A DNA stretch of 58,898 nt from Kiloniellales bacterium (GTDB lineage Bacteria; Pseudomonadota; Alphaproteobacteria; Kiloniellales; JBOHKJ01). The stretch spans positions 1 to 58,898 of the forward strand of contig JBOHKJ010000288.1 in NCBI GenBank assembly GCA_050728975.1, written 5' to 3'. The notes under the pieces were generated by a model, which made no database searches, was not told the origin of the DNA, and saw only the letters and a program-made list of their open reading frames with translations. The position numbers and the translations under genes are program-made. Within the stretch, counting starts at the first letter, position 1; every line of letters begins with the position of its first letter. This document shows positions 33,232 through 45,963 of the stretch, piece by piece.

Positions 33232-33915
33232 CTACGAGCCACCTTCCGCGTCGCGCGCGGCCTTGGCGCCGCCTGGAGCCGTGGAGTCCTCGGTGCAGGT
33301 CCCGATCGAGCCGTCGCCGCAGGTCCGGCCGTCGATCCAGATGGCACCTTCGAGATCTGCGCCCGGCACCCATTCCGACCCGGAAAAGTCAGTTCCGACA
33401 ACGGTCGCGCCGGTCAAGTTAGCGTCGTTCAGGCGCGCGGCCTGGAGTCGGGCGCCGCTGAGATTGGCCCGGCGCAGATCGGCGTCCTGGAGGTTGGCGC
33501 CGACCAGATTCGCTTCGGAAAGATCGGCCCCGGCCAGGTCGGCGCCACGCAGCCAAGCCTTCTCCAAGTCCGCACCGGACAGATCCGCATCCTTTAGGTG
33601 GGCTCCATTGAGCGAGGCGCCGCGCAGGTCGGCATTCGATAAGCTGGCGCCCTGCAACCTGGCGCCGCGCAGATTGGCGTCCGACAGGTCGGCGCTCGAC
33701 AGATCGACCCCGGTCAGGGTTGCGTCGGACAGATTAATGGAGGACAGCGGCCTGCCGGAGAGACTGGCGCCGGTCAGGTCCGCGCCGGAACAGTTGGCAA
33801 AAGCCCTTGGCTCGCAAGCCGCCCTGGCGCCGTTCGCTCCCCATCCGATCAACAGGAGATAGATCGCCAATGCCGCCAAGGGTAGGTGTCTGCCATCCGC
33901 TCCGGTCACTGGCAT
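33232..33915 (-). CDS. Secreted pentapeptide-repeat protein
   Basis: Signal peptide (LAALAIYLLLIGWGANGARA), then about 30 A(D/N)LxG-type pentapeptides (ADLTGASLSG...ANLRGARLQGASLSNADLRGASLNGAHLKDADLSGADL...) and a Cys-containing tail. Confidence 0.85.
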   Translation of the reverse strand: MPVTGADGRHLPLAALAIYLLLIGWGANGARAACEPRAFANCSGADLTGASLSGRPLSSINLSDATLTGVDLSSADLSDANLRGARLQGASLSNADLRGASLNGAHLKDADLSGADLEKAWLRGADLAGADLSEANLVGANLQDADLRRANLSGARLQAARLNDANLTGATVVGTDFSGSEWVPGADLEGAIWIDGRTCGDGSIGTCTEDSTAPGGAKAARDAEGGS

Positions 33916-34323: not shown

Positions 34324-34539
34324 GTGCAGCTGGATTTCTCTCGTGCTTCTGCGGTGCGGCAATCTGGTGGGACCGGAATCGGGAACGCTTGCGCGCCACG
34401 CAGTGGCGTCACTGTCGTCGGCGGGATGCTGGCTGCCACCGTGATCGGACTCTTTGTTATCCCGACGCTGTTCGTGGCGATACGGCGAATTGCCGAATGG
34501 GGTGCTCGCAAGCCCGCGAGCGAGAAGCCGGCTGAGTAG
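34324..34539 (+). pseudogene. Relic of the 3' end of an RND (AcrB-type) efflux permease gene
   Basis: [36 protein letters not shown] parallels the AcrB C-terminus [30 protein letters not shown]. About 1000 codons of upstream coding sequence are absent. Confidence 0.6.
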
Positions 34540-34546
34540 CGCGCCT

Positions 34547-36376
34547 ATGCCCCAGGCAAGGCCGAGCAGTTGGCTCGATCGTCCGGTCGACGAAGCGTTC
34601 GACCATGTCCTCGGCGCGCCTGACGCGCCAATCACCCTTGTCGAATACGGCAGCTATGCCTGCCCGCATTGCCGGGCTGCCAATGAGCGCATTGCCGAGG
34701 TCCGCGACCAGTTGGGCGATCGCCTGCGCTACGCATTCCGGCATCGCCCGGTCCCCGGGAGCGACGTCGCTCGTCGCGCCGCCGAATTGGTGGAGCGCAC
34801 CGGCGATCCCGAGCACTTCTGGAAGGCGCATGTCGAATTGATGACGCGCTCGGAAACGCTGACCGAAGACGACTTGCGTGCCGTGGCCGGCGATTTGGCC
34901 CTGGCGCGGGAAAGCTTCGATGCCACCGAAGATGCCGGCAGACGCGCGCAGGCGCGGGTCGATGTCGACGTGAACAGCGCTAGCGCCAGCGGGGTGCTGA
35001 TCACGCCGACCTTCTTCATCAATGGCCGCCGCTACGACGGTCCGTGGGACGAAGTGTCGTTTTCCGACGCGATGCTCGGCACGCTGGGCCATCGCGTGCG
35101 TTCGGCGGCGCTCGACTTCGCAAGATGGGGACCGTCGGCCGGCGCGCTGCTTCTGGCCGCCACGCTCCTGGCGGTCGTGCTGACCAACACGTCGCTGGGT
35201 CCCGAATTCGAGGCAATCTGGCAGCAGAATTTCGGCTTCACACTCGGCGACGCCAGTTTCCGCCTGTCGTTGCTGCAATGGATCAACGACGGTCTGCTGA
35301 CGATCTTCTTCCTGGTTGTGGGGTTGGAGATCAAGCGTGAATTTACCGTCGGTCATCTGGCCAGCCGGCGTTCCGCGGCTCTGCCGATCGCCGGAGCCAT
35401 CGGCGGCATGGTCGTACCGGCGGCCTTGTACATACTGGTGATTCCACAAGGGCCCTGGTCGCATGGCTGGGGCATACCGATCGCGACAGATACCGCCTTC
35501 GCGGTCGCGCTGATCGTGACGATGGGTCGGCGGGTGCCGATCGAGCTGCGTATCTTTCTGACCGCCGCCGCTATCGTCGACGACATCGGCGCAATTCTGT
35601 TGGTGGCGGTCTTATATTCGGCCGACCAGCAGATCGGATACCTCGCCGTAGCCGCTGCGATAGTTGGCGGGTTGGCGCTGCTCAATCGGGCCCGTATCTA
35701 TCGCCTGTTTCCGTACATGCTGTTGGGTATCGCGCTTTGGGCTTGCATACAGGCAGGCGGTCTGCACGCCACCTTGACCGGCGTGCTCCTGGCGCTGTTT
35801 ATCCCGACACGACCGCCACCGAATCTGAATGGCTTGATGGCGCAGGCGAATGCAATTATGGCGGCTGACGCGCGGCAGGGCGGCGAGGTACTTCGGCATG
35901 GCCCTTCGCTGCCGGTGCTGCACGCGCTCGACGCAATCCACGACCGGCTGGAATCGCCGGCGGCCCGCCTCTTGAGGCACGCCGGCTCGCGGTCGAGCTA
36001 TCTGGTGTTGCCGCTCTTCGCCTTGGCCAATGCTGGGGTCGCCCTGACGGTGGCGGTCGTGAGCGGCCACCAGCAATTGATGCTCGCGATCGTTGTTGGT
36101 CTGGCGATCGGCAAGCCGCTCGGCATGGTGTCGGTTTCTGCGTTGACGGTCTGGCTGGGTATTGCCGTCAAGCCAGAGGAGTACTCCTGGCGCCAGCTGG
36201 CAGGCGCCGGTACCCTGGCCGGCATTGGCTTCACCATGTCATTGTTCATTGCCGGCCAGGCCTTTCCGGTGGCAGCCGACTTTGCAGCCGCCAAAATTGC
36301 CGTGTTCGTCGCCTCGGTGCTCTCCGCAGTCGTCGGCGTGACGCTGCTATGGGGCGCCGGGCGCGATTCGCGCTAG
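34547..36376 (+). CDS. nhaA: Na+/H+ antiporter NhaA with an N-terminal DsbA-like thioredoxin-fold domain
   Basis: ATG 34547. N-terminal domain [17 protein letters not shown]...[17 protein letters not shown] (CxxC). NhaA core follows: [42 protein letters not shown]. Confidence 0.85.
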
Positions 36377-36917: not shown

Positions 36918-39900
36918 TTGAAAAGAATGAGATGTCACTATTGCGGCGCGGCGGTTCGCGATCGAGATGACATCTGCAGTTCCTGCGGCCGTGACCTGAC
37001 ATTGGCCTTCGCCAAGTGCTGGTCGTGCGGCGGCGCCAATCCCGGGAACCAGAAATTCTGCGGCCATTGCGGAGCCTTTCTTTCCGCAGGCCCGCCCAGT
37101 GCTTCGGAAGAGGTTCTGCCGCCGGCGGCGCAACGGGGCAGCGATGCAGCCTCCGATCGCCGGCAGGTCACGGTTCTGTTCGTCGATCTAGTCGGCTCGA
37201 CGGAGATTTCGCGCCGCCTCGATCCCGAGGATCTGAGCGAACTGCTCGGCGCGATACAAAAGTGCTGCGACGAGGTCATCACGCGATTTGAGGGCTTTAC
37301 TGCTCAGCTCCTGGGCGATGGCATCCTTGCCTACTTCGGCTATCCGAAGGCCCATGAGGACGATCCCGAGCGGGCAGTGCGGGCGGGGCTGGGTGTCATT
37401 CAGGCCATGGGGGCCGTCAGCCGCCATTTCGATCAGGATATCGCGCTTCGGGTCGGCATCGCGACAGGTACGGTTCTGACGGGCAACCGGACTGTGCTAG
37501 GCGGCCCGGTGTCCCTCGCAGTTGTCGGCGATACGCCCAATCTGGCCGCCCGGCTTCAGGGCATCGCGAGACCGAACAGCGTCGTCGTCTCGCAATCGAC
37601 CAAGGACATCTTGCGGAAGCTGTTCGACTTCAAGGACCTCGATCGGCAAAGGCTGAAGGGGTTCGGCGACCCGGTCGGCGCCTGGGAGGTCACCAGCGAG
37701 CGCCCCGTAATGACCCGCTTCGAAGCGCTCAGATCCGATGTTCATGCACCGCTGGTGGGCAGGCGGGAAGAACTGGCGTTGCTGAATAGCCGCTGGGATC
37801 TGGCGAAGAGAGGAACCGGTCAGATCGTATTGTTGACCGGAGAGGCGGGCATCGGGAAATCGCGGATCATCGAGAATTTTCGACGCGCGACAGCGGCCGA
37901 TGGGATGATTCTCGTCTTTCAATGTTCGTCCCACTACGCCAACAGCGCGCTGTTCCCGGTCATCGCACAAATGGAGAAGACGATCGGCTTGCTGCCGGAG
38001 GATGGCAAGGAGGCACGTCTCGAGAAGCTCAAGAAGAGCATATCTGCGGTGCTGGCCGACTCCAGCCTCGCTGTGCCGCTCTTTGCGAGGCTGCTGTCGA
38101 TTCAAGTCGATGGGGACGAGTCGGCCGCGGCAATGAGCGCGCAGCGCTGGAGGGAGGCGACCTTCCGCGTGCTTCTTGGCTACCTGGAAGCTCTGTCCAA
38201 GACCGAGCCTCTCCTCGTGATTGTCGAAGACGCTCATTGGATCGACCCCAGCACGCTCGAGCTGATCGAGTTGATGAGGGGCTGGATCCGTTCGGCTCGT
38301 GTGCTTTTGATCGTCACGGCGCGGCCCGAGTTCATGCCGTCTTGGACGACAACGCCCGGACTCTCCATGTTGACGCTCAATCGATTGAGCGCAAGCGAGA
38401 GCGCGACCTTGGTGCGCGGCTTGCCCGGCTCGGGCAGCTTGCCGGAGGACGTCGTGGCAAAGCTTTGCGATCGGGGTGACGGCGTGCCGCTGTTCATCGA
38501 GGAGCTTGCCTTGTCGCTCCTGTCATCGGGAAGCCAAGACGATCCGGCATCGGCGTCGGTCCGGCAGAACAAGGAGTCGGGATTCTCCATTCCAGCCACC
38601 CTCCAGGATTCCCTGATGGCCAGACTGGACATGCTCGGTCCGAGCAAAGACTTGGCACAGATCGCTGCGGCAATCGGCAGAGACTTCAGTCTCGATCTCC
38701 TGGAGGAGATTGCCGAGCGGCCGATTGCAGAGCTTCAAGGTGCCATGGATTCCATGATCCGCGCCGCTTTGATCTATAGCAGCGGCGTACCGCCGCACTG
38801 GAACTACAGCTTCAAGCACACCCTGGTGCAGGATGCGGCTTATTCGAGCTTGCTGCGAGGGCGCCGGAAGAAACTGCACGGCCGGATCGCAGAGGTGCTC
38901 GAGGGCCGGTTTCAGCGCAGCAAGCCGGAACTGATCGCCCATCACTACACGCTGGCTCGCAACCCGCAAAAGGCGATCGAGTACTGGGAGGAGGCGGGTC
39001 GGCGGGCGCTTCGCAGCTCGGCCGACCGCGAGGCTGTCGGCCATTTCGAGCGCGCAACCCAATTGCTAGGCGAGTTGCCCAGCACGATCGCGACCAAGAG
39101 CCGGGAGCTGTCCCTGAGAATCTTGTTCGGTCCGGCCATGATCAACACGCTGGGGCCCATGAGTCGAGAAGTGCAGGGGAACTACCGGAGGACGGACCGG
39201 CTGTGTCAGGAGCTTTCCGAAAGTTCGGAGCACTTTGCTGCGATCTGGGGCTCCTGGCGCATTACGCGAAGCTTCGAGAAGAAACGCGAGATCGCCGATC
39301 AACTCCTTCGGCTTTCGAATCGGTTGGACGACGAAGGGCTCCGCTTGCAGGCCCATCACACCCAGTGGGCCACGCTCTTTCATCTCGGCTTGCATGAGGA
39401 ATGTGTCCGGCACGTCGACGAAGGCATGCGACTATACAGGCTGCAGGACTATCGGGCGCATGCGTCGCTCTACGGCGGACACGACCCGAAAGTCTGCGGC
39501 TGTGGAGAGGCGGCATTTTCGCTGTGGCTCATGGGGCAGCCACGCGAAGCGCTACTCCGCTCGCGTGACGCGATGGGCTGGGCGCGGCTGATGGCGCACG
39601 CTGGCAGCATAGCGCACGCACTCGACATGAACCTAGTTCTCCAGTTCTTCAGGAGGAACGTGGTGGGCACCATCGAACGCTCCGAGCAGCTGTTGCGCTT
39701 CGCGGAGGAGGAGGGCTTCCCCATCCACAAGGCAAAAGGCAGTATCTACCGCGGATGGGCAATGTGCCGTATGGGGGACGTCGAGCGCGGGTTCAAGCTG
39801 ATGCAGCAGGGCCTCGACTCACAGAAGGAAACCGGCACACGCGAGGATTTTCCGCTCTTCTACAGCATGTTGGCTGAAGTCTTCAGAATGCGTGAGGAGT

Positions 39901-40238
39901 TCGATCGCGGAATTGGTGTCGTGGATCAGGGCGTGTCGGAAGCGGAGGATAGCGGTCTGCAGTACTGGATGGCGGAGCTTTATCGCTGCAAGGGCGAGCT
40001 CCTTCATGCGCGCGGCGATGCCACCGACGAAGCCGAGAAGGTGCTGCAGTTTGCCTGCCGAGTTGCCTCCCATCAAGGCGCATCGCTTCTGGAGCTGCGC
40101 GCCACCAAATCGCTGGCTCGGCTATGGGCGCAAACCGGGCGGCCGAGCCAGGCTCGGGATATACTGGCAACGACGCGGCGCGCGCTCGCCGCCCGCGTGA
40201 AACGTAATGGCATCGACAAGATAGAGGCGCTGCACTGA
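36918..40238 (+). CDS. Double zinc-ribbon / class III adenylate-guanylate cyclase / AAA(STAND) ATPase / TPR multidomain protein
   Basis: CHYCGAAV...CSSCG...CWSCGG...CGHCG. Cyclase domain RRQVTVLFVDLVGSTE...GDGILAYFGYP. P-loop LLTGEAGIGKSR. Long helical-repeat C-terminus. TTG 36918 or ATG 36927 start. Confidence 0.9.
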   Translation: MKRMRCHYCGAAVRDRDDICSSCGRDLTLAFAKCWSCGGANPGNQKFCGHCGAFLSAGPPSASEEVLPPAAQRGSDAASDRRQVTVLFVDLVGSTEISRRLDPEDLSELLGAIQKCCDEVITRFEGFTAQLLGDGILAYFGYPKAHEDDPERAVRAGLGVIQAMGAVSRHFDQDIALRVGIATGTVLTGNRTVLGGPVSLAVVGDTPNLAARLQGIARPNSVVVSQSTKDILRKLFDFKDLDRQRLKGFGDPVGAWEVTSERPVMTRFEALRSDVHAPLVGRREELALLNSRWDLAKRGTGQIVLLTGEAGIGKSRIIENFRRATAADGMILVFQCSSHYANSALFPVIAQMEKTIGLLPEDGKEARLEKLKKSISAVLADSSLAVPLFARLLSIQVDGDESAAAMSAQRWREATFRVLLGYLEALSKTEPLLVIVEDAHWIDPSTLELIELMRGWIRSARVLLIVTARPEFMPSWTTTPGLSMLTLNRLSASESATLVRGLPGSGSLPEDVVAKLCDRGDGVPLFIEELALSLLSSGSQDDPASASVRQNKESGFSIPATLQDSLMARLDMLGPSKDLAQIAAAIGRDFSLDLLEEIAERPIAELQGAMDSMIRAALIYSSGVPPHWNYSFKHTLVQDAAYSSLLRGRRKKLHGRIAEVLEGRFQRSKPELIAHHYTLARNPQKAIEYWEEAGRRALRSSADREAVGHFERATQLLGELPSTIATKSRELSLRILFGPAMINTLGPMSREVQGNYRRTDRLCQELSESSEHFAAIWGSWRITRSFEKKREIADQLLRLSNRLDDEGLRLQAHHTQWATLFHLGLHEECVRHVDEGMRLYRLQDYRAHASLYGGHDPKVCGCGEAAFSLWLMGQPREALLRSRDAMGWARLMAHAGSIAHALDMNLVLQFFRRNVVGTIERSEQLLRFAEEEGFPIHKAKGSIYRGWAMCRMGDVERGFKLMQQGLDSQKETGTREDFPLFYSMLAEVFRMREEFDRGIGVVDQGVSEAEDSGLQYWMAELYRCKGELLHARGDATDEAEKVLQFACRVASHQGASLLELRATKSLARLWAQTGRPSQARDILATTRRALAARVKRNGIDKIEALH

Positions 40239-40285: not shown

Positions 40286-41569
40286 ATGAATGGCTCGGCT
40301 ATAGCGCCGAGAGAAGCAGTCGGGAGAAGGGAGCTCTCGCAGGGCATCGCTCGTCCTGGGGATCGAAAGCGCTATCTCACCGGCACGCACCGGGTTCTGG
40401 CGCCCGCGTTGACCTTGGATCTGGTCCGACCTCACCTCGACGCCATGGGAATTACGCGGATCGCCAACGTGACCGGACTCGATGTCATCGGCATCCCCGT
40501 CGTCATGGTCTGCCGCCCCAACTCCCGCTCCATCTCCGTGGCTCAAGGAAAAGGCGCGACGCTCGAGGCGGCGAAGGCATCTGGCGTCATGGAGGCGATC
40601 GAGACCTTCCACGCGGAGCGCCTGGAAGGGCCTGTATGCGTCGCAAGCTACAGCGAGCTCCGGCAGGAGTTGCCGGTCGTCGACGTGCGACGCTTGGCGC
40701 AATCGCCCAAGACCAGATTCCACGGGGACCTGAGAATTCCTTGGGTGGCGGGCCGCGAGGTGACGACAGGCGAGGCGATCTGGCTGCCCTACGAGGTCGT
40801 GCACACCGACTACAGCCTACCCTTGCCCGAGGGAAGCGGCTGTTTTCCGGCGAACACCAATGGTCTGGCGTCGGGCAATTGCGTTTCGGAGGCGATCAGC
40901 CACGGAATTTGCGAGGCGATTGAGCGGGATGCGGTGACGCTCTGGAAGCGTCGCGGTCGCTCGCTGGGCGATGCGATGGCGATAGATCCCGATTCGGTCG
41001 ACGACCCCCTCTGTCAGGAGCTTCTCGTGAAGTTTCGAGAGGCCGATCTCGACGTCTGCATCTGGAACGCGACTTCGGATATCGGCGTTGCCACCTTCTA
41101 CTCCTTGATCGTGGGGCGTCGCCCCGGCTTCGCCGATCCCGAGTTCGGTTCCGGGTGCCATCCATCGCGGGCGATCGCCCTGGCGCGCGCCCTGACCGAA
41201 GCGGCGCAGGCCCGCACCACCTACATCGCTGGCGTCCGGGACGACTATCTGCCGGAGCTCTACAACGAGGAGGTGCGATCGCGCCGCTTGCAGCACTGTC
41301 GGCGCGCGCTCTCCACCCATCGGCCGATCGATGATTTCCGCAAAACGCCGGACTTCGGCGGAGAGTCCATCGTGGACGATGTCGACTGGTTGACCGACCG
41401 GCTTCGCGAACGCGGACTTGATCAGGTGATCGCGGTCGATTTGACGCGTGAGGAGCTCGGCATTGCAGTCGTCAAGGTCGTCGTTCCCGGCTTGGAGGGA
41501 CCGGACAAGGGCCGCGATAGCGACTATTCGCCCGGGGCGCGGGCACGAGCCCTTAGCGAGGGGCACTAG
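40286..41569 (+). CDS. YcaO-domain protein (ATP-dependent amide-activating enzyme)
   Basis: GIPVVMVCRPNSRSISVAQGKGATLEAAKASGVMEAIE and FPANTNGLASGNCVSEAISHGICEAIERDAV are hallmark YcaO blocks. 427 aa. Confidence 0.9.
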   Translation: MNGSAIAPREAVGRRELSQGIARPGDRKRYLTGTHRVLAPALTLDLVRPHLDAMGITRIANVTGLDVIGIPVVMVCRPNSRSISVAQGKGATLEAAKASGVMEAIETFHAERLEGPVCVASYSELRQELPVVDVRRLAQSPKTRFHGDLRIPWVAGREVTTGEAIWLPYEVVHTDYSLPLPEGSGCFPANTNGLASGNCVSEAISHGICEAIERDAVTLWKRRGRSLGDAMAIDPDSVDDPLCQELLVKFREADLDVCIWNATSDIGVATFYSLIVGRRPGFADPEFGSGCHPSRAIALARALTEAAQARTTYIAGVRDDYLPELYNEEVRSRRLQHCRRALSTHRPIDDFRKTPDFGGESIVDDVDWLTDRLRERGLDQVIAVDLTREELGIAVVKVVVPGLEGPDKGRDSDYSPGARARALSEGH

Positions 41570-41571
41570 AG

Positions 41572-42570
41572 ATGTCTGCCTATGTCTTCCTCGGACCGAC
41601 CTTGCCGGCGACCGAGGCGCGATCGATCTGCGAGGTCCGGATTCTGCCACCCGTGAGACAGGGCGACCTCTATAGGTTGGTCGAGGCCGAGCGGCCGGCG
41701 GCAGTCGGAATCGTCGACGGCGCCTTCCAGCACGTTCCGGCGGTCTGGCACAAGGAAATCCTCTGGGCAATGAAGCGAGGCGTGTATGTCGTCGGAGCGG
41801 CGAGCATGGGTGCGCTTCGGGCCGCTGAGCTCGAAGCCTTCGGCATGAAGGGCGTCGGTGCGGTGTTTGGAGCCTACCGCGATGGCGTTTTGGCCGGCTA
41901 TGACGATGAAGCTTTCGAAGACGACGACGAAGTCGCGGTCATACACGGCCCGCCGGAAACCGGCTACCTGCCGCTTTCCGAAGCGCTCGTCAACATTCGC
42001 GTCACGCTGCGCGCGGCCGAGGCGGCGGGAGTCTTGTCGAGCGCCTTCAGGAGGCGCCTCGCCGCGATCGCCAAGGCGACCTTCTACCAGGAGCGCAGCT
42101 ACGACGGCCTGATTGCGGCGGCCTCGAAGGACGGTTCCCCACCGCACGAGCTCGAAGCCTTCGCCGCCTGGCTGCCAGAATGCCGGATCGATCAGAAACG
42201 GGCGGACGCTCGGTTCCTGTTTTCGACCCTGAAAGAGTGGCTCGAAGGCGACCGCGAGCCGGCGCGCAACTCCTACCGCTTCGTTCATACCACGCTTTGG
42301 CAGAGCGCCATCGAGCGGCTCGAAGCGGGCGCGGCCACGACTCCGGCGAGTGGAACGCCCGACCTCGGTACCGGCGTGGCGGCGCTCGCCGCCCTGGTCT
42401 GGTATTTCGAAGATCGTCTCGGACAAGCGATCCCCCACGATCTGGAGCTTTATGCGAGAGCGCAGGGCTACCGCGATCATCAGGACTTCCGCGACGCCGT
42501 GGCACGTGACTATCGCCGCGCACGGCTCGCCCACGGCATCGACAGCCGGGGCAATGAGGTGGATGCATGA
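41572..42570 (+). CDS. TfuA-like protein with a C-terminal extension
   Basis: YVFLGPTLP...ILPPVRQGDLYRL...AVGIVDGAFQHVPAVWHKEILWAMKRGVYVVGAASMGALRAAEL is the TfuA domain pattern. The gene starts 2 nt after the ycaO stop. Confidence 0.85.
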   Translation: MSAYVFLGPTLPATEARSICEVRILPPVRQGDLYRLVEAERPAAVGIVDGAFQHVPAVWHKEILWAMKRGVYVVGAASMGALRAAELEAFGMKGVGAVFGAYRDGVLAGYDDEAFEDDDEVAVIHGPPETGYLPLSEALVNIRVTLRAAEAAGVLSSAFRRRLAAIAKATFYQERSYDGLIAAASKDGSPPHELEAFAAWLPECRIDQKRADARFLFSTLKEWLEGDREPARNSYRFVHTTLWQSAIERLEAGAATTPASGTPDLGTGVAALAALVWYFEDRLGQAIPHDLELYARAQGYRDHQDFRDAVARDYRRARLAHGIDSRGNEVDA

Positions 42571-43919
42571 CGATGGCGGCGTTTCACCGACTGGACAGCG
42601 AGCTTCAAGGGCGCGGAACCCGTTTTCGGCTCTATCCGCAGATAGCTACCGAAGCGTCATCGCAATCAGAGATCGTTTGGACCTCTCCGCGCCCTGGAAG
42701 TGTTGGTCCCGGACCGAGCGATCGGCGTATGTATGTGGTGCATCCGACGTCCAAACTGGAGCCCTACGAGTTTCCCTTCCTGCCGCCCTACCGGGGGCCG
42801 AGATTCCCGGATGCTCTACCCGATCGTTTTGGACATTTTGACTATCTCGAACCGGGGACGCCGGCCTTCAACGCCGCGCATCTTTACGGCGCAGTACGCC
42901 GCGTGCTCGATATCTGGGAAGCCTATTTCGAGCGCGAAATCCCGTGGCGGTTCCGCGCGCCGCGCAGCCGCCTGGAGTTGATTGCTTTCGTGGATTGGAA
43001 CAACGCCCAGTGCGGTTACGGATATCTCGAGGTCGGCTACGGAGAGTCTGAAACCGGCGGCGCACGGTTGCCCTACTGTCTGAATTTCGATGTGCTGGCC
43101 CACGAGACCGGGCACGGGATCATCTATTCGGAGCTGGGAGTTCCAGCCACACATGCGGTCACTACCGAGTACCGGGGTTTCCAGGAAGCCTCGGCTGACC
43201 TGGTGGCTTTGATCTCCGCTATGCATTTCGACTCGGTCGTCGATCGCGTTCTGCTGAAATCGGCGGGCAACATCTACGCCGAGAACGAGCTCAATCGGAT
43301 CGGCGAGCTGTCGGAAACCGAGCAGATCAGGCATGCGAGCAACGAATACAAGATGTCGGACGTTCCCGACGTGAGGATTCCGCCGGAACTGCTCTCCCAA
43401 CCGGAACTTCATCTTGCCGGGGAGCCATTGACTGGCGCGGGCTTCGACATTCTGGTCGAGATCTATCAGGAGTTGCTGGTAGAACTCGGGCTGATCGATG
43501 GTCGTACCGCCGATCTGTCTTATCACGTTCCCCAGAACCAAGATTCGGCAGGCCTGATTCAAGAGCGTTTCGATCGCGCCTATCGAGGGCGTCATGCCGG
43601 CTTCGCGCTGGCGTTGAGGCAGGCGAGGGACTGCGTCGGGCGCATCCTGGCCTTGGCCTGGTCCGGCTTGAGTCCGGATTTCCTCAGCTATCGTGGCGTC
43701 GCAGCTGCGTTGCTCGACGCCGAGCGGATCGTTTCGGGCGGCCGATTCCGGAGACTCATCGAGGAAAACCTGGCCTGGCGGGAGATTCCCCTGCCGGAGC
43801 CGGCCGGCCGCGCGACATCGCGCGAGGACCTCGCGGGCCCGGCCGCGGCGCGCGCGATCGCCGCCCGGATTCGCCGTCGAGGGGTAAGCGCCCTTCGAAG
43901 GGGTTTTTTGTTGGTATAG
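42567..43919 (+). CDS. Hypothetical zinc-metallopeptidase-like protein (HExxH...ExxxD, gluzincin pattern)
   Basis: ATGA overlap with tfuA and a GAGGTGG SD. VLAHETGHGIIYSELG...FQEASADLVALISAM resembles the thermolysin HExxH plus downstream Glu helix. No signal peptide. Confidence 0.7.
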   Translation: MTMAAFHRLDSELQGRGTRFRLYPQIATEASSQSEIVWTSPRPGSVGPGPSDRRMYVVHPTSKLEPYEFPFLPPYRGPRFPDALPDRFGHFDYLEPGTPAFNAAHLYGAVRRVLDIWEAYFEREIPWRFRAPRSRLELIAFVDWNNAQCGYGYLEVGYGESETGGARLPYCLNFDVLAHETGHGIIYSELGVPATHAVTTEYRGFQEASADLVALISAMHFDSVVDRVLLKSAGNIYAENELNRIGELSETEQIRHASNEYKMSDVPDVRIPPELLSQPELHLAGEPLTGAGFDILVEIYQELLVELGLIDGRTADLSYHVPQNQDSAGLIQERFDRAYRGRHAGFALALRQARDCVGRILALAWSGLSPDFLSYRGVAAALLDAERIVSGGRFRRLIEENLAWREIPLPEPAGRATSREDLAGPAAARAIAARIRRRGVSALRRGFLLV

Positions 43920-43954
43920 AGATAGCGCCCGAGCGCAAACAGAGGAGGTCGTGT

Positions 43955-44533
43955 ATGCAAGAAAACCTTTTGTCTCCGTCAAACATCGTGCTGTTCGGCA
44001 GGCCATTTCCCTTGTCTGTGGACAAAAACTCCATTCCCAAGGGCTTAGGCGAGAATCGATTCCTGGAAAGACAGCTCGGCGCCGTGGGAGCGCGCTTCGC
44101 CAGGATCTACGCCTTTTCCTACGAAGGCAGCTTCTACAACCTCCCAAAGCCGGCCATCTATCTGGTGCACGGCAGGGGCCGGTCGTTGGATCAACTTCCA
44201 GGAGGCAGTTCGAAGACAAAGGATTTCCGTGCTCAGAACATCGGTGCAAGCGTGGACGAAACCGATGTGGTGGCAAAGGAATTCGACTTCCAATCGGGAT
44301 TGATGTTCTGGGAGTACGACAAGTGCGATATTTCGATGCGGATCGATATCGTATCGGGAGCCCTCGACAATGTCCTCCTGGATGCAGCGCTGTCGGTGAC
44401 GGCGCCGGATGCCTTGACGTCGCGTTCGGATCTGATCGCGCGCTCGGATTTAACCTCGCGCTCCGATCTCACGTCCCGCTCGGATCTCTCCTCGCGGTCA
44501 GATTTGACGGCGCGGCATCGCTTGAAAGGATAG
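43955..44533 (+). CDS. Hypothetical 192-aa protein with a C-terminal six-fold hexapeptide repeat (candidate modification substrate)
   Basis: GAGGAGG lies 7 nt before the ATG. Balanced composition. Visibly less GC-rich at the 5' end than its neighbours. Tail: TSRSDL IARSDL TSRSDL TSRSDL SSRSDL TARHRL KG. Confidence 0.7.
   Translation: MQENLLSPSNIVLFGRPFPLSVDKNSIPKGLGENRFLERQLGAVGARFARIYAFSYEGSFYNLPKPAIYLVHGRGRSLDQLPGGSSKTKDFRAQNIGASVDETDVVAKEFDFQSGLMFWEYDKCDISMRIDIVSGALDNVLLDAALSVTAPDALTSRSDLIARSDLTSRSDLTSRSDLSSRSDLTARHRLKG
44417..44524 (+). repeat. Six in-frame 18-bp tandem repeats
   Basis: acgtcgcgttcggatctg / atcgcgcgctcggattta / acctcgcgctccgatctc / acgtcccgctcggatctc / tcctcgcggtcagatttg / acggcgcggcatcgcttg. 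Confidence 0.95.
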
Positions 44534-44598
44534 AGCTAAATCGAATCGCCCGATTCTCGGCGGCAATGGTGGACAGACATCGCGCTACAGGCTTGCCG

Positions 44599-45294
44599 CT
44601 AGATCCCCAGAACGTCTTCCACCAGCCGGGACAGACGGTGCACATCGTTGACCACGATCTTGTTGCCCTGTCGCTCGATGAGTCCCGACTTGGAAAGTTT
44701 GCTCAGCTCGCGAGTGACGGCCTCCCGATGCGTGCTGATGCGGCTTGCTATCGCACTGTGGGTCGGAGCCGGAGAGATTGCAGCGCGATTCTCGTTCAGC
44801 ATGTTGGAGCGCGCCAGCCGCAGGAGCTCGGCGTGAATCCGGTTGCGGACGCTGAGGGCCGAAACCTCGAACACTCGCTCGGAGAGTGAGCGGACGGTTT
44901 CCGCCAGGCGCTTCAGGGTTACCACCGCGAAATCGGGATGCTCGTGTAGAACGCGCCCGAACTGCTGCGCCGTCAGCGACGCGATCGTGCAATTGGAAAG
45001 GGCGACAACGCCGGCCGATCGCGGCTTGCCGTCGATTGCCGCCAATTCCCCGAACATCTCGCCGGCGGCCATGTCGCGAAAAGTGACCTCTTTGCCTGCA
45101 GGCGAGTAGACCGTGACGCGCACGCTGCCAGAGACGATGAAGAAGACGTCGGACGATTCGTCTTGGTGCCCGATAATTTGCTGGTCGCGCAGGTACTCGT
45201 GCCACCGCACCAGGCGCTCAAGAGCCGTGATCGTGTCGGGCGCGACCGACTCGAGTGCGCGCAGCTTGCTCAAGGATTTGTCGGACTGCGGCAT
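44599..45294 (-). CDS. Crp/Fnr family transcriptional regulator (cNMP-binding domain plus HTH)
   Basis: cNMP-binding fold FFIVSGSVRV...FGELAAIDGKPRSAGVVA. C-terminal HTH THSAIASRISTHREAVTRELSKLSKSGLI. No N-terminal Fnr-type Cys cluster. Confidence 0.9.
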   Translation of the reverse strand: MPQSDKSLSKLRALESVAPDTITALERLVRWHEYLRDQQIIGHQDESSDVFFIVSGSVRVTVYSPAGKEVTFRDMAAGEMFGELAAIDGKPRSAGVVALSNCTIASLTAQQFGRVLHEHPDFAVVTLKRLAETVRSLSERVFEVSALSVRNRIHAELLRLARSNMLNENRAAISPAPTHSAIASRISTHREAVTRELSKLSKSGLIERQGNKIVVNDVHRLSRLVEDVLGI

Positions 45295-45603
45295 CTGGCT
45301 CGTCAGGGCCCCTCGCCAGTTCGTCCGGAGATAAGAAGAGATGACGCCCTGGGGGGCCGATCATTCCTGCATCGTCGCAATGGGTCAACGATCTTGCCGC
45401 CAAGCTCGGCGGCCGTCGGTCGACGGAAGGCCGCTTAGGCCCGGGTGTTCGCGCGATGTTCCCTTTGGGGTGGACGCTAGGAGCCGGAGCGCGGCGATGG
45501 AAGCCTCCAGGATTTGGGAGGGGCGAGCGCCTGATCTTTGAGTGAAAATGGGACTCTCGGGAATCTCGTTGCCCTGGGACCGGCGAGCGGGAGGTCAGCT
45601 GCG

Positions 45604-45963
45604 ATGGCGCGAATCCTTCTGATGGACGATGACGATCTGGTCAGCGCGACCATCAAGGATGCGCTGGTTGCGGCAGGTCACGACGTTGCGAGCGTACCCA
45701 ACGGGCGCTCAGGGCTCGACCGCTTGGCGGCCATCGACTTCGACTTGATCGTCATCGACCTCGTGATGCCGGAAGTGGACGGCATCGAAGCGATCCGGCA
45801 GATCAGAGCGCGCGACCGAGCGACGCCGATCATAGCCATCTCAGGCAGCAGCGGAGCGGAAATCTATCTGAGTGCCGCGCAGGCGCTCGGCGCAACGACG
45901 ATACTCAGGAAGCCTTTCGCCAATGACCGGCTCGTCCGGGAGATTGCGAGCGCATTGGATTAG
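45604..45963 (+). CDS. Orphan single-domain response regulator (receiver only)
   Basis: ATG 45604 with a GGGAGG SD. ILLMDDDD...DLIVIDLVMPEVDGIEAIRQIR...PIIAISG...LRKPF. Confidence 0.85.
   Translation: MARILLMDDDDLVSATIKDALVAAGHDVASVPNGRSGLDRLAAIDFDLIVIDLVMPEVDGIEAIRQIRARDRATPIIAISGSSGAEIYLSAAQALGATTILRKPFANDRLVREIASALD

Follow-up and report, generated by a model that had tools for sequence, protein, structure and literature searches.

What is the function of a protein whose C-terminus repeats a short motif again and again? This question arises from a 58,898-nt contig of a Kiloniellales bacterium (JBOHKJ010000288.1; hereafter the window), in which an open reading frame (ORF) of 192 amino acids (aa) at 43955–44533 (+) ends, by direct translation, with TSRSDL-IARSDL-TSRSDL-TSRSDL-SSRSDL-TARHRL. 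We propose that this ORF encodes a precursor with multiple cores, the source of short peptides that are probably thioamidated, and that it represents a new and widespread precursor family; we consider this reasonably probable, though far from certain. By analogy to VarA, the precursor of the thiovarsolins, our best reading of the locus is a YcaO-TfuA system that resembles those for multi-core peptides that are made on the ribosome and modified after translation (RiPPs), built on a new family of precursors, with a dedicated peptidase and with regulation linked to cyclic nucleotides (cNMPs).

The array comprises six in-frame units of 18 nt, starting at 44417, followed by AAA GGA TAG (KG and a stop codon). 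The first five units, at 44417–44506 (+), are the putative iterated core peptides; they are conserved in orthologs and are disordered in the AlphaFold2 (AF2) model. The cap TARHRLKG and the stop codon occupy 44507–44533 (+). Tandem Repeats Finder reported a period of 18 (5.4 copies, 70% matches, score 82) and also a super-repeat with a period of 36 (score 93). The five RSDL units are 72% identical as nucleotides and 82% identical as peptides. Their differences fall 14/4/32 at codon positions 1/2/3, and a comparison of codon pairs gives 28 synonymous versus 11 non-synonymous differences. A first-pass annotation, made from the sequence alone, had described six in-frame units whose peptide is kept while the synonymous sites are scrambled, and translation, codon comparison, and Tandem Repeats Finder all bear this out. 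The codons that it listed are exact: Leu is CTG, TTA, CTC, CTC, TTG, TTG; Arg is CGT, CGC, CGC, CGC, CGG, CGG; and Ser is TCG, TCC, or TCA. It had also singled out TTA as an odd choice for leucine here, and just 2 of the 298 leucine codons across the six genes of the cluster are TTA. Aspartate is encoded by GAT in all five RSDL units, while the cluster genes use GAT and GAC equally (80 vs. 84). In orthologs, Ser and Ala tend to take turns at the second residue of the unit, which gives a 12-residue (36-nt) super-repeat and matches the longer period from Tandem Repeats Finder.

The sixth unit had been described as a degenerate copy that could act as a terminal cap. The cap interpretation holds up: xRHR(L/I/F)K is conserved from the Burkholderiales to Rokubacteria and in relatives from Chloroflexota, and every member of the 6-mer clade has xRHRxK(G/S), even where there is just one unit, as in P0046.

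The reading frame is preceded by a Shine-Dalgarno sequence, GGAGG at 43944–43948 (+), which we read from the sequence 6 nt before the ATG. Together with the frame itself and the variation at third codon positions, it speaks for a genuine gene. The ORF begins 35 nt past the end of a peptidase gene and runs in the same direction. Two other ORFs had been named as products that might be expressed instead, and we found no support for either one. The ORF at 43951–44889 (+), with 312 aa, has an Arg/Gly-rich translation and no homologs, and it overlaps a convergent Crp gene; the ORF at 44233–44472 (–) has no homologs and an implausible composition. The 192-aa frame, by comparison, recurs in homologs. 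The 192-aa sequence, the 312-aa alternative, and the Crp ORF of the window have no exact match in a collection of 15 billion proteins. Since a peptidase from the same contig (MGH6947582.1) is in that collection, the 192-aa gene was probably left unannotated in the source metagenome-assembled genome (MAG).

A protein search found 49 homologs of the 192-aa protein, all of which are unnamed or "hypothetical" and have no Pfam domains. They share the tail architecture and a conserved end that resembles ARHRLKG. We then counted the family in two ways. Scanning one genome for each species gave 68 loci (referred to by L numbers), and a profile search against 1.84 billion representative proteins gave 584 or more clusters at 50% identity (E up to 1e-3), 449 of them with E up to 1e-10. 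The family spans several phyla, and its members include cultured Rhizobium, Mesorhizobium, and Paracoccus denitrificans; RefSeq labels the Rhizobium genes as "hypothetical protein." One native locus is that of Rhizobium ruizarguesonis RCAM1026, on pRL10 (BSO17_RS26825–26840). No actinobacterial members are among the 68 genome loci, and most of the 584 profile matches carry no taxonomy. The literature contains no description of the repeat-tailed family that we could find, nor did printed repeat strings match, and neither Pfam nor NCBIfam has a model for it. We conclude that these proteins form an undescribed family of putative precursors.

All members share an architecture: a constant N-terminal domain of ~145 aa (the N-domain) and then 1–10 tandem units of 4–12 aa. 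The first-pass annotation had taken R-S-D-L to be the selected motif and had suggested comparing orthologs. Within the RSDL (6-mer) clade, the frame and the motif are indeed retained, with 1–6 copies per protein, but RSDL is only one of 62 distinct unit types across the family. Most unit types are 5 or 7 residues long; examples are xSRSDL, TSRADL, SRAELx, SGAGV, SGANL, GMNAR, GANVR, GRSGGAM, SGAHARV, and SGMDLRT. Over the 62 types, G, S, A, and R account for 64% of residues and proline for 0.3%. At least one of L, I, V, M, or F is present in 57 of the types, with exactly one in 42; at least one basic residue is present in 49; and none contains cysteine.

A few loci depart from this pattern. 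In L025, L028, L052, L049, and L067, the tail turns Arg/Trp-rich or the ORF is cut to 52–58 aa by frameshift or truncation; these copies are either pseudogenes or the result of indel errors within the array in MAGs assembled from long reads. Four loci have mixed arrays (L051, L055, L061, and L047), with SGANL beside SGANV or SGASL beside AGASL. These look like intermediate stages in the switch of an array from one unit type to another, and they bear on how units can switch when there is no homogenization at the DNA level.

Could the repeat be a neutral variable-number tandem repeat (VNTR) produced by slippage, or lie in non-coding sequence or the wrong frame? Tandem arrays can arise by slippage, and copy number in this family ranges from 1 to 10. 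However, the units are close to synonymous saturation. In most loci, the units within one protein are 100% identical as peptides yet only 61–91% identical as DNA. Across 27 loci and 1,890 codon pairs that encode the same residue in different units, 56% differ, versus 66% expected if each codon were drawn independently from local codon usage; for the array of the window, the fractions are 0.50 and 0.70. Near-saturated synonymous differences between units with identical peptides imply that the arrays are old and are maintained by selection on the peptide. Furthermore, comparisons between species of rhizobia indicate that purifying selection acts more strongly on the tail than on the N-domain. 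In Mesorhizobium, there are 0.031 non-synonymous changes per codon in the tail versus 0.054 in the N-domain, and in Rhizobium, 0.08 versus 0.235, while synonymous change in the tail is equal to or above that of the N-domain. The frame is also retained in 584 clusters, and the alternative ORFs lack homologs and have implausible compositions, as described above. So the VNTR explanation is almost certainly wrong, and the earlier suggestion of long-standing selection on the peptide instead of recent slippage is upheld by both the codon differences and the rhizobial rates.

The N-domain (residues 1–154, encoded at 43955–44416 (+)) is a putative leader or docking domain. It is strongly conserved: an alignment of 24 sequences has 21 invariant columns, including ARIY, EG, LP..LVH, and W.Y...R.D, and E57, H72, R129, and D131 are invariant polar residues. 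AF2 predicts a folded alpha/beta domain, with confidence at residues 10–80 and 110–148, and a disordered repeat tail with a predicted local distance difference test score (pLDDT) below 50. Foldseek found no match to the N-domain model in PDB or BFVD at E ≤ 0.001, and the 192-aa protein does not belong to any family in Pfam, NCBIfam, or PADLOC. In a lenient Pfam scan of 24 aligned members, PhiKZ_gp85 gave weak matches (E of about 0.005–0.01), but these cover only the low-complexity tail and we consider them spurious.

Upstream of the 192-aa ORF, on the same strand, are genes for YcaO, TfuA, and a peptidase. The gaps between genes of the operon are 48 nt at most, or the genes overlap, which leaves no space for a further small precursor; the ORFs that we considered upstream of the regulator gene were unconvincing too. 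The YcaO protein (427 aa; 40286–41569 (+); Pfam YcaO, E = 5e-83) has its best NCBIfam match to TIGR03266, the YcaO for thioamidation of a glycine of McrA, at 239 bits, which is below the cut-off for that model. Its score against the SagD azoline-type model (145 bits) is below that model's cut-off and also below the McrA-type score. TfuA (332 aa; 41572–42570 (+); Pfam TfuA, E = 2e-44) has a C-terminal extension of ~110 aa, and its stop codon overlaps the start of the peptidase gene. It scores 200 bits against ThioGly_TfuA_rel from NCBIfam (cut-off 235).

The peptidase (450 aa; 42567–43919 (+)) appears to be a zinc peptidase with the thermolysin fold (M4/M36-like), as judged from its HExxH...ExxxD motif and from AF2 and Foldseek. 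In the window, the motif consists of HETGH and EASAD with 23 residues between them. All 37 orthologs tested have HExxH, and 36 of them have HExxH-x23-E(A/S)xxD (L020 has no match to E(A/S)xxD). The AF2 model has a pLDDT of 83 and a predicted TM-score of 0.86, and each of the top 30 Foldseek matches in PDB is a peptidase of family M4 or M36, with probability 1.00, E from 3e-6, and target-normalized TM-scores of up to 0.66. These include thermolysin, ProA, vibriolysin, LasB, aureolysin, and fungalysins. By sequence, there was no match to Pfam (Peptidase_M4, M4_C, M36) or NCBIfam at E up to 0.01, and single-sequence and profile comparisons to PDB gave only motif-level matches to angiotensin-converting enzyme and fungalysin. 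The protein has no FTP or PepSY domain from Pfam, and its N-terminus (MTMAAFHRLDSELQGRGTRF) has no hydrophobic signal segment by inspection. We describe it as a predicted cytoplasmic peptidase with a thermolysin fold and an intact zinc motif. It belongs to a family of over 790 "hypothetical" proteins. The source record, MGH6947582.1, has 396 aa; because the additional N-terminal residues of the 450-aa ORF include residues that are invariant in orthologs (G17, T18, Q25, E35, G49, P50, and D52), the deposited start is probably too far downstream. Inside the final codons of the gene for the peptidase, right before the ribosome-binding site of the 192-aa ORF, a scan for consensus terminators matched a GC hairpin with a T-run (43877–43910 (+)). 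This could set the ratio of precursor to enzymes or act in RNA processing or stability.

In our proposal, the folded N-domain of ~145 aa would be a constant handle (a leader or a docking domain), and the disordered tail would carry iterated copies of one short core, here x-x-R-S-D-L five times, closed by the basic cap TARHRLKG. The co-transcribed YcaO-TfuA pair would put one or more backbone thioamides into each unit: YcaO would use ATP to activate the amide, and TfuA would deliver sulfide from a ThiS-type thiocarboxylate. The cytoplasmic thermolysin-fold peptidase that is encoded just upstream would cut at the large hydrophobic residue found once per unit (Leu in the window), to give several copies of a 6-residue product from each precursor. 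The unit-sized products of the window would have expected [M+H]+ values of 678.342, 674.383, and 664.326, or 15.977 higher in each case if thioamidated. Finally, a cyclase-STAND protein and a convergent Crp-family protein, which are described below, would act as a pair that regulates the operon through cNMP.

TfuA-associated YcaO enzymes produce thioamides. Because of this, and because the YcaO and TfuA of the window score best against the models for McrA-type thioamidation, we propose that the tail is thioamidated. Thermolysin-like (family M4) enzymes favor a large hydrophobic residue at P1'. The presence of one hydrophobic residue in nearly every unit type fits this preference, as does the period of Leu in the window, where it recurs every 6 residues from the "DAL" that precedes the array into the cap. 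As for the mechanism of sulfur delivery, PMC13063428 describes TfuA as a thiocarboxylate hydrolase, citing Liu et al. 2021.

Our proposal also fits the gene neighborhoods of the family. In 58 of 61 loci, the gene for the repeat protein directly follows the peptidase gene. We found YcaO-TfuA in 31 loci, which belong to Alpha-, Beta-, and Gammaproteobacteria, Rokubacteria, and Chloroflexota, and in every non-rhizobial lineage with enough flanking sequence; in L071, the gene order is identical to that of the window. In the tree of the peptidase, which follows unit type overall, the loci that lack YcaO form a single nested clade, which suggests one loss or relocation, and YcaO-TfuA looks ancestral in the family.

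Several observations weigh against our proposal. We infer thioamidation of the tail, the register of cleavage, the use of the N-domain as a leader, and what the product does in the cell; the evidence on thioamidation and cleavage comes from the neighboring genes. If the peptidase cuts in register, then a hydrophobic residue is expected in phase, one period before the array, and this was seen in 19 of 42 cases, compared to a background of 28%, which is weak evidence for the register. The N-domain is far larger and far more conserved than ordinary leaders, with its 21 invariant columns, and could have a function of its own. Among the Pfam matches of the cluster and the flanking genes, there is no exporter, immunity gene, or Opp system, and a signal peptide is also lacking, so nothing here points to an antibiotic that acts outside the cell.

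The variants of the locus weigh against it as well. In cultured Rhizobium and Mesorhizobium, no locus has YcaO-TfuA within 8 kb, so unless these genes are elsewhere in the genome, thioamidation is not essential across the family. In Paracoccus denitrificans HAMBI_2443 (L073; NZ_CP141053.1, 87922–106422), we found YcaO, TfuA, a precursor whose tail has RGMSV three times (ARGMSVHGMSVRGMSVNSDNKD), a divergent cyclase-TPR gene (TPR for tetratricopeptide repeat), and Crp, but there was no match to the M4-like peptidase. The first-pass annotation had tied the units to the adjacent YcaO/TfuA and protease. The neighbors are as it described them, but given the rhizobial and Paracoccus loci, the tie, though strong, is not universal. 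What constantly accompanies the units is instead the N-domain together with a regulator of the cyclase or STAND type; the annotation had considered neither.

These variants have some other features. A 394-aa ORF that follows the Paracoccus precursor was a candidate for the peptidase, but its translation is Arg/Gly-rich and lacks HExxH. The gene table of PLSDB has no features over this stretch of L073. In the Rhizobium and Mesorhizobium loci without YcaO-TfuA, an ORF of 110–122 aa follows the precursor (18 loci); the proteins form two sequence clusters and have no Pfam match. Examples are L032:8564–8932 (which overlaps the stop of the precursor), L019:8637–8984, and L074:6624–6956.

We also considered that the protein might remain uncut, with the size, the fold, and the high conservation of the N-domain in favor of this. 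The tail would then be a multivalent binding or bait segment, or a target of thioamidation at the level of the protein (as in McrA or uL16), and the peptidase would only degrade the protein or activate it as a switch. YcaO enzymes can modify full-size proteins such as uL16 (PMC13063428), there is no export machinery, and some members have just one unit (P0046 and the "HYSGQKVRIR" forms, for example). However, an identical short unit that is iterated up to 10 times beside a gene for a dedicated endopeptidase is the pattern of multi-core precursors, as in VarA, the cyanobactins, and the fungal KEX2-type precursors. Furthermore, copy number is free to vary among close relatives while the sequence of the unit is fixed, and the phylogeny of the peptidase follows the unit type. 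We therefore think it quite unlikely that the protein acts intact.

Another alternative is that the N-domain is the catalyst or scaffold that defines the class and acts in cis on its own tail, similar to the fused precursors of borosins or those with a BURP domain, with YcaO-TfuA as optional tailoring enzymes. Only the N-domain and the tail are present in every variant of the locus, invariant polar residues such as E57, H72, R129, and D131 are unusual for a leader, and the fold has no known relative. But the N-domain is not similar to any enzyme family or fold either; at 145 aa, including an insert of ~25 residues with low confidence, it is small for a catalyst; and YcaO-TfuA looks ancestral, with the loci that lack YcaO confined to one nested clade. 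Catalysis in cis seems improbable to us.

If the peptides are released, as we propose, what are they for? The regulators give a hint. At 36918–40238 (+), before ycaO, the window encodes a protein of 1106 aa (its TTG start is uncertain) with a double zinc ribbon, a class III nucleotidyl cyclase, an AAA_16 (STAND) ATPase, and a long helical C-terminal region. The Pfam matches are Guanylate_cyc (E = 1e-23), AAA_16 (E = 1e-20), and DZR; there is no Pfam TPR match in the C-terminal region. In the cyclase domain, the two Asp residues that bind metal are in place, as is the Asn/Arg pair, and the specificity position is occupied by Gln. Against TIGR03903 from NCBIfam ("TOMM system kinase/cyclase," where TOMM stands for thiazole/oxazole-modified microcin), it scores 548 bits (cut-off 706), and the alignment begins at position 270 of the model, so that the kinase part is absent. 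We rejected a reading of the locus as a defense system, as the resemblance to PADLOC entries is limited to the generic cyclase domain (PycC). A convergent gene at 44599–45294 (–) encodes a Crp/Fnr-family regulator with cNMP-binding and HTH_Crp_2 domains (Pfam, E = 7e-20 and 2.5e-13).

Regulators of the cyclase or STAND type occur almost throughout the family. A gene of the same type as that of the window is upstream in L002, L004, L005, L008, L071, and others, while rhizobia and Paracoccus have cyclase-TPR proteins in its place. A cyclase-TPR or cyclase-STAND regulator is beside the precursor in 53 of 68 loci, and most of the others have truncated flanks. In L069 (1775–5944), from the P0040 lineage, the cyclase-STAND protein is replaced by a 1389-aa protein with Sigma54_activat, HTH_8, and AAA_16 domains. 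Such a swap of the output to a sigma54 activator on the same STAND chassis implies that this gene is a regulator and not a biosynthetic enzyme. The Crp gene is in the same position in L001, L071, and L072, is nearby in L013, L017, and L018, and is downstream in the Paracoccus locus.

So we considered that the released peptides might be signals, akin to those of RRNPP systems: they would bind the TPR or helical sensor that is part of the neighboring STAND/cyclase regulator, with the level of peptide converted to a cNMP that Crp reads, or to the output of a sigma54 activator. This is possible but doubtful. It would explain why the regulator so often accompanies the precursor and why it is retained both where YcaO-TfuA is absent (rhizobia) and where the peptidase is absent (Paracoccus). 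The new output domain in L069, with the STAND module kept, is the behavior of a regulator; an adjacent Crp gene is found in the window, L001, L071, L072, and L073; and the lack of an exporter or immunity gene is also consistent with signaling. Units of 5–8 aa, often with one Arg, resemble Phr-type pentapeptides. However, STAND regulators are common beside ordinary biosynthetic clusters (TIGR03903 itself was defined next to TOMM clusters), the cluster has neither a signal peptide nor an Opp-type importer, and the C-terminal region of the window's regulator has no recognized TPR. Signaling would refine the role of the product and does not contradict the multi-core precursor that we propose. We put an unlikely but far-reaching form of this idea forward as well: the whole family may be a Gram-negative system for peptide-receptor signaling, in which the peptidase mints peptides of 5–8 residues, optionally stabilized by thioamides, as ligands of the adjacent STAND sensor, whose output via Crp or a sigma54 activator reprograms transcription. 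If so, the 62 unit types would be private "languages" that diversify together with the proteins that process and sense them.

How does the multi-core system that we propose compare to known ones? The first-pass annotation noted that the precursor of the thiovarsolins has a repetitive, multi-core architecture, and this is correct (PMC6511847). VarA from Streptomyces varsoviensis has 0–5 imperfect C-terminal repeats, depending on the ortholog, and requires VarY (YcaO) and VarT (TfuA); the products are N-acetylated, thioamidated APR or GPR tripeptides, the cluster has no protease, and housekeeping peptidases were invoked (PMC6511847). Similarly, in the window, a YcaO-TfuA pair adjoins a precursor with C-terminal repeats of variable number, and the thiovarsolins are themselves short, Arg-containing, and thioamidated. 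But the thiovarsolin system is actinobacterial with an ordinary short leader, instead of a conserved N-domain of 145 aa; its cores are APR/GPR, instead of xxRSDL in a family whose units have almost no proline; and it lacks a dedicated protease, whereas the window has an M4-like peptidase along with cNMP/STAND regulators. Furthermore, the VarO heme-oxygenase-like protein, ATP-grasp protein, and amidinotransferase of the thiovarsolin cluster are not among the Pfam matches of the window's cluster or its flanks. The locus is not a member of the thiovarsolin family, from which it is set apart by motif, accompanying genes, and taxa (the sequence of VarA did not enter this comparison).

As for YcaO-TfuA RiPPs more broadly, the window has adjacent YcaO and TfuA genes with a candidate precursor, their putative substrate, in the same operon, and 31 YcaO-TfuA loci share this gene order. 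Thioamitides (thioviridamide, thiostreptamide) and other such RiPPs likewise have a TfuA-associated YcaO, and the same O-to-S chemistry on the backbone is expected; unlike the window, they come from Actinobacteria, with only one core per precursor and numerous additional tailoring enzymes. As of PMC8120280, the characterized thioamidated RiPPs from YcaO-TfuA all came from Actinobacteria, with none from proteobacteria, and genome-mining surveys have reported many proteobacterial TfuA clusters without describing a repeat-tailed precursor (PMC8120280). The systems for thioglycine in McrA and for uL16 of E. coli (PMC13063428) share with the window both a folded protein as substrate and the models that match its YcaO and TfuA best. 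However, these are housekeeping substrates with a single site, not repeat tails with a peptidase, and the scores for the window are below the equivalog cut-offs.

Multi-core precursors are found elsewhere too: cyanobactin PatE with PatA/PatG, ustiloxin and phomopsin in fungi (processed by KEX2), and the BURP/lyciumin precursors of plants. In each of these, one polypeptide holds many short cores in variable number, which are excised by proteases, but these systems use enzymes with no relation to those of the window (subtilisin-like or Kex2 proteases, macrocyclases, or copper enzymes). Also, cyanobactin cores are hypervariable and lie between conserved recognition sequences, while the units of the window are themselves conserved and directly abut each other. 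The peptidase shares the fold and the HExxH...ExxxD zinc site of families M4 and M36 in MEROPS; it differs in being just ~10–15% identical to them, in having no Pfam M4/M36 match, no signal peptide, and no FTP/PepSY propeptide, and in being a predicted cytoplasmic enzyme whose gene is in an operon with that of one substrate.

The clusters around TIGR03903 resemble the window in that a large cyclase-STAND protein is encoded beside YcaO. Besides the low score and the missing kinase domain, the window lacks an E1-like or docking partner, a dehydrogenase, and an NHLP or Nif11 leader, and its units have no Cys. In the RRNPP/Phr systems of Firmicutes, peptides of 5–8 aa, typically Arg-containing pentamers, are cleaved out of a pro-protein whose gene adjoins that of a TPR-type receptor. 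The family described here is Gram-negative, with no Sec signal or nearby Opp importer, and with a cyclase or sigma54 activator as the output of a receptor whose ligand binding is hypothetical; cyclase-TPR proteins are found in the rhizobial and Paracoccus loci, the regulator of the window has no TPR match, and the 192-aa protein has no evident signal peptide. The locus of the window thus falls outside the definitions of TOMM/TIGR03903 systems, of canonical M4 peptidases by sequence, and of RRNPP cassettes.

The repeat-tailed family could yield the first thioamidated peptides from proteobacteria, and tractable hosts are available: plasmids of the Rhizobium leguminosarum group, Mesorhizobium, and Paracoccus denitrificans. 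Nature offers three combinations of the modules (with both sets of enzymes, without YcaO-TfuA, or without the peptidase), which would let each step be dissected. The constant link to cyclase/STAND regulators raises the possibility of a role in peptide signaling. And since identical peptide units are kept until their codons are almost randomized, yet lineages differ in their unit, the family raises the question of how an entire array changes its unit.

The genes on either side of the cluster seem unrelated to it. These are a pentapeptide-repeat protein (33232–33915 (–)) and an NhaA Na+/H+ antiporter fused to DsbA/thioredoxin (34454–36376 (+)) on the one side, and a stand-alone response regulator receiver (45538–45963 (+)) on the other.

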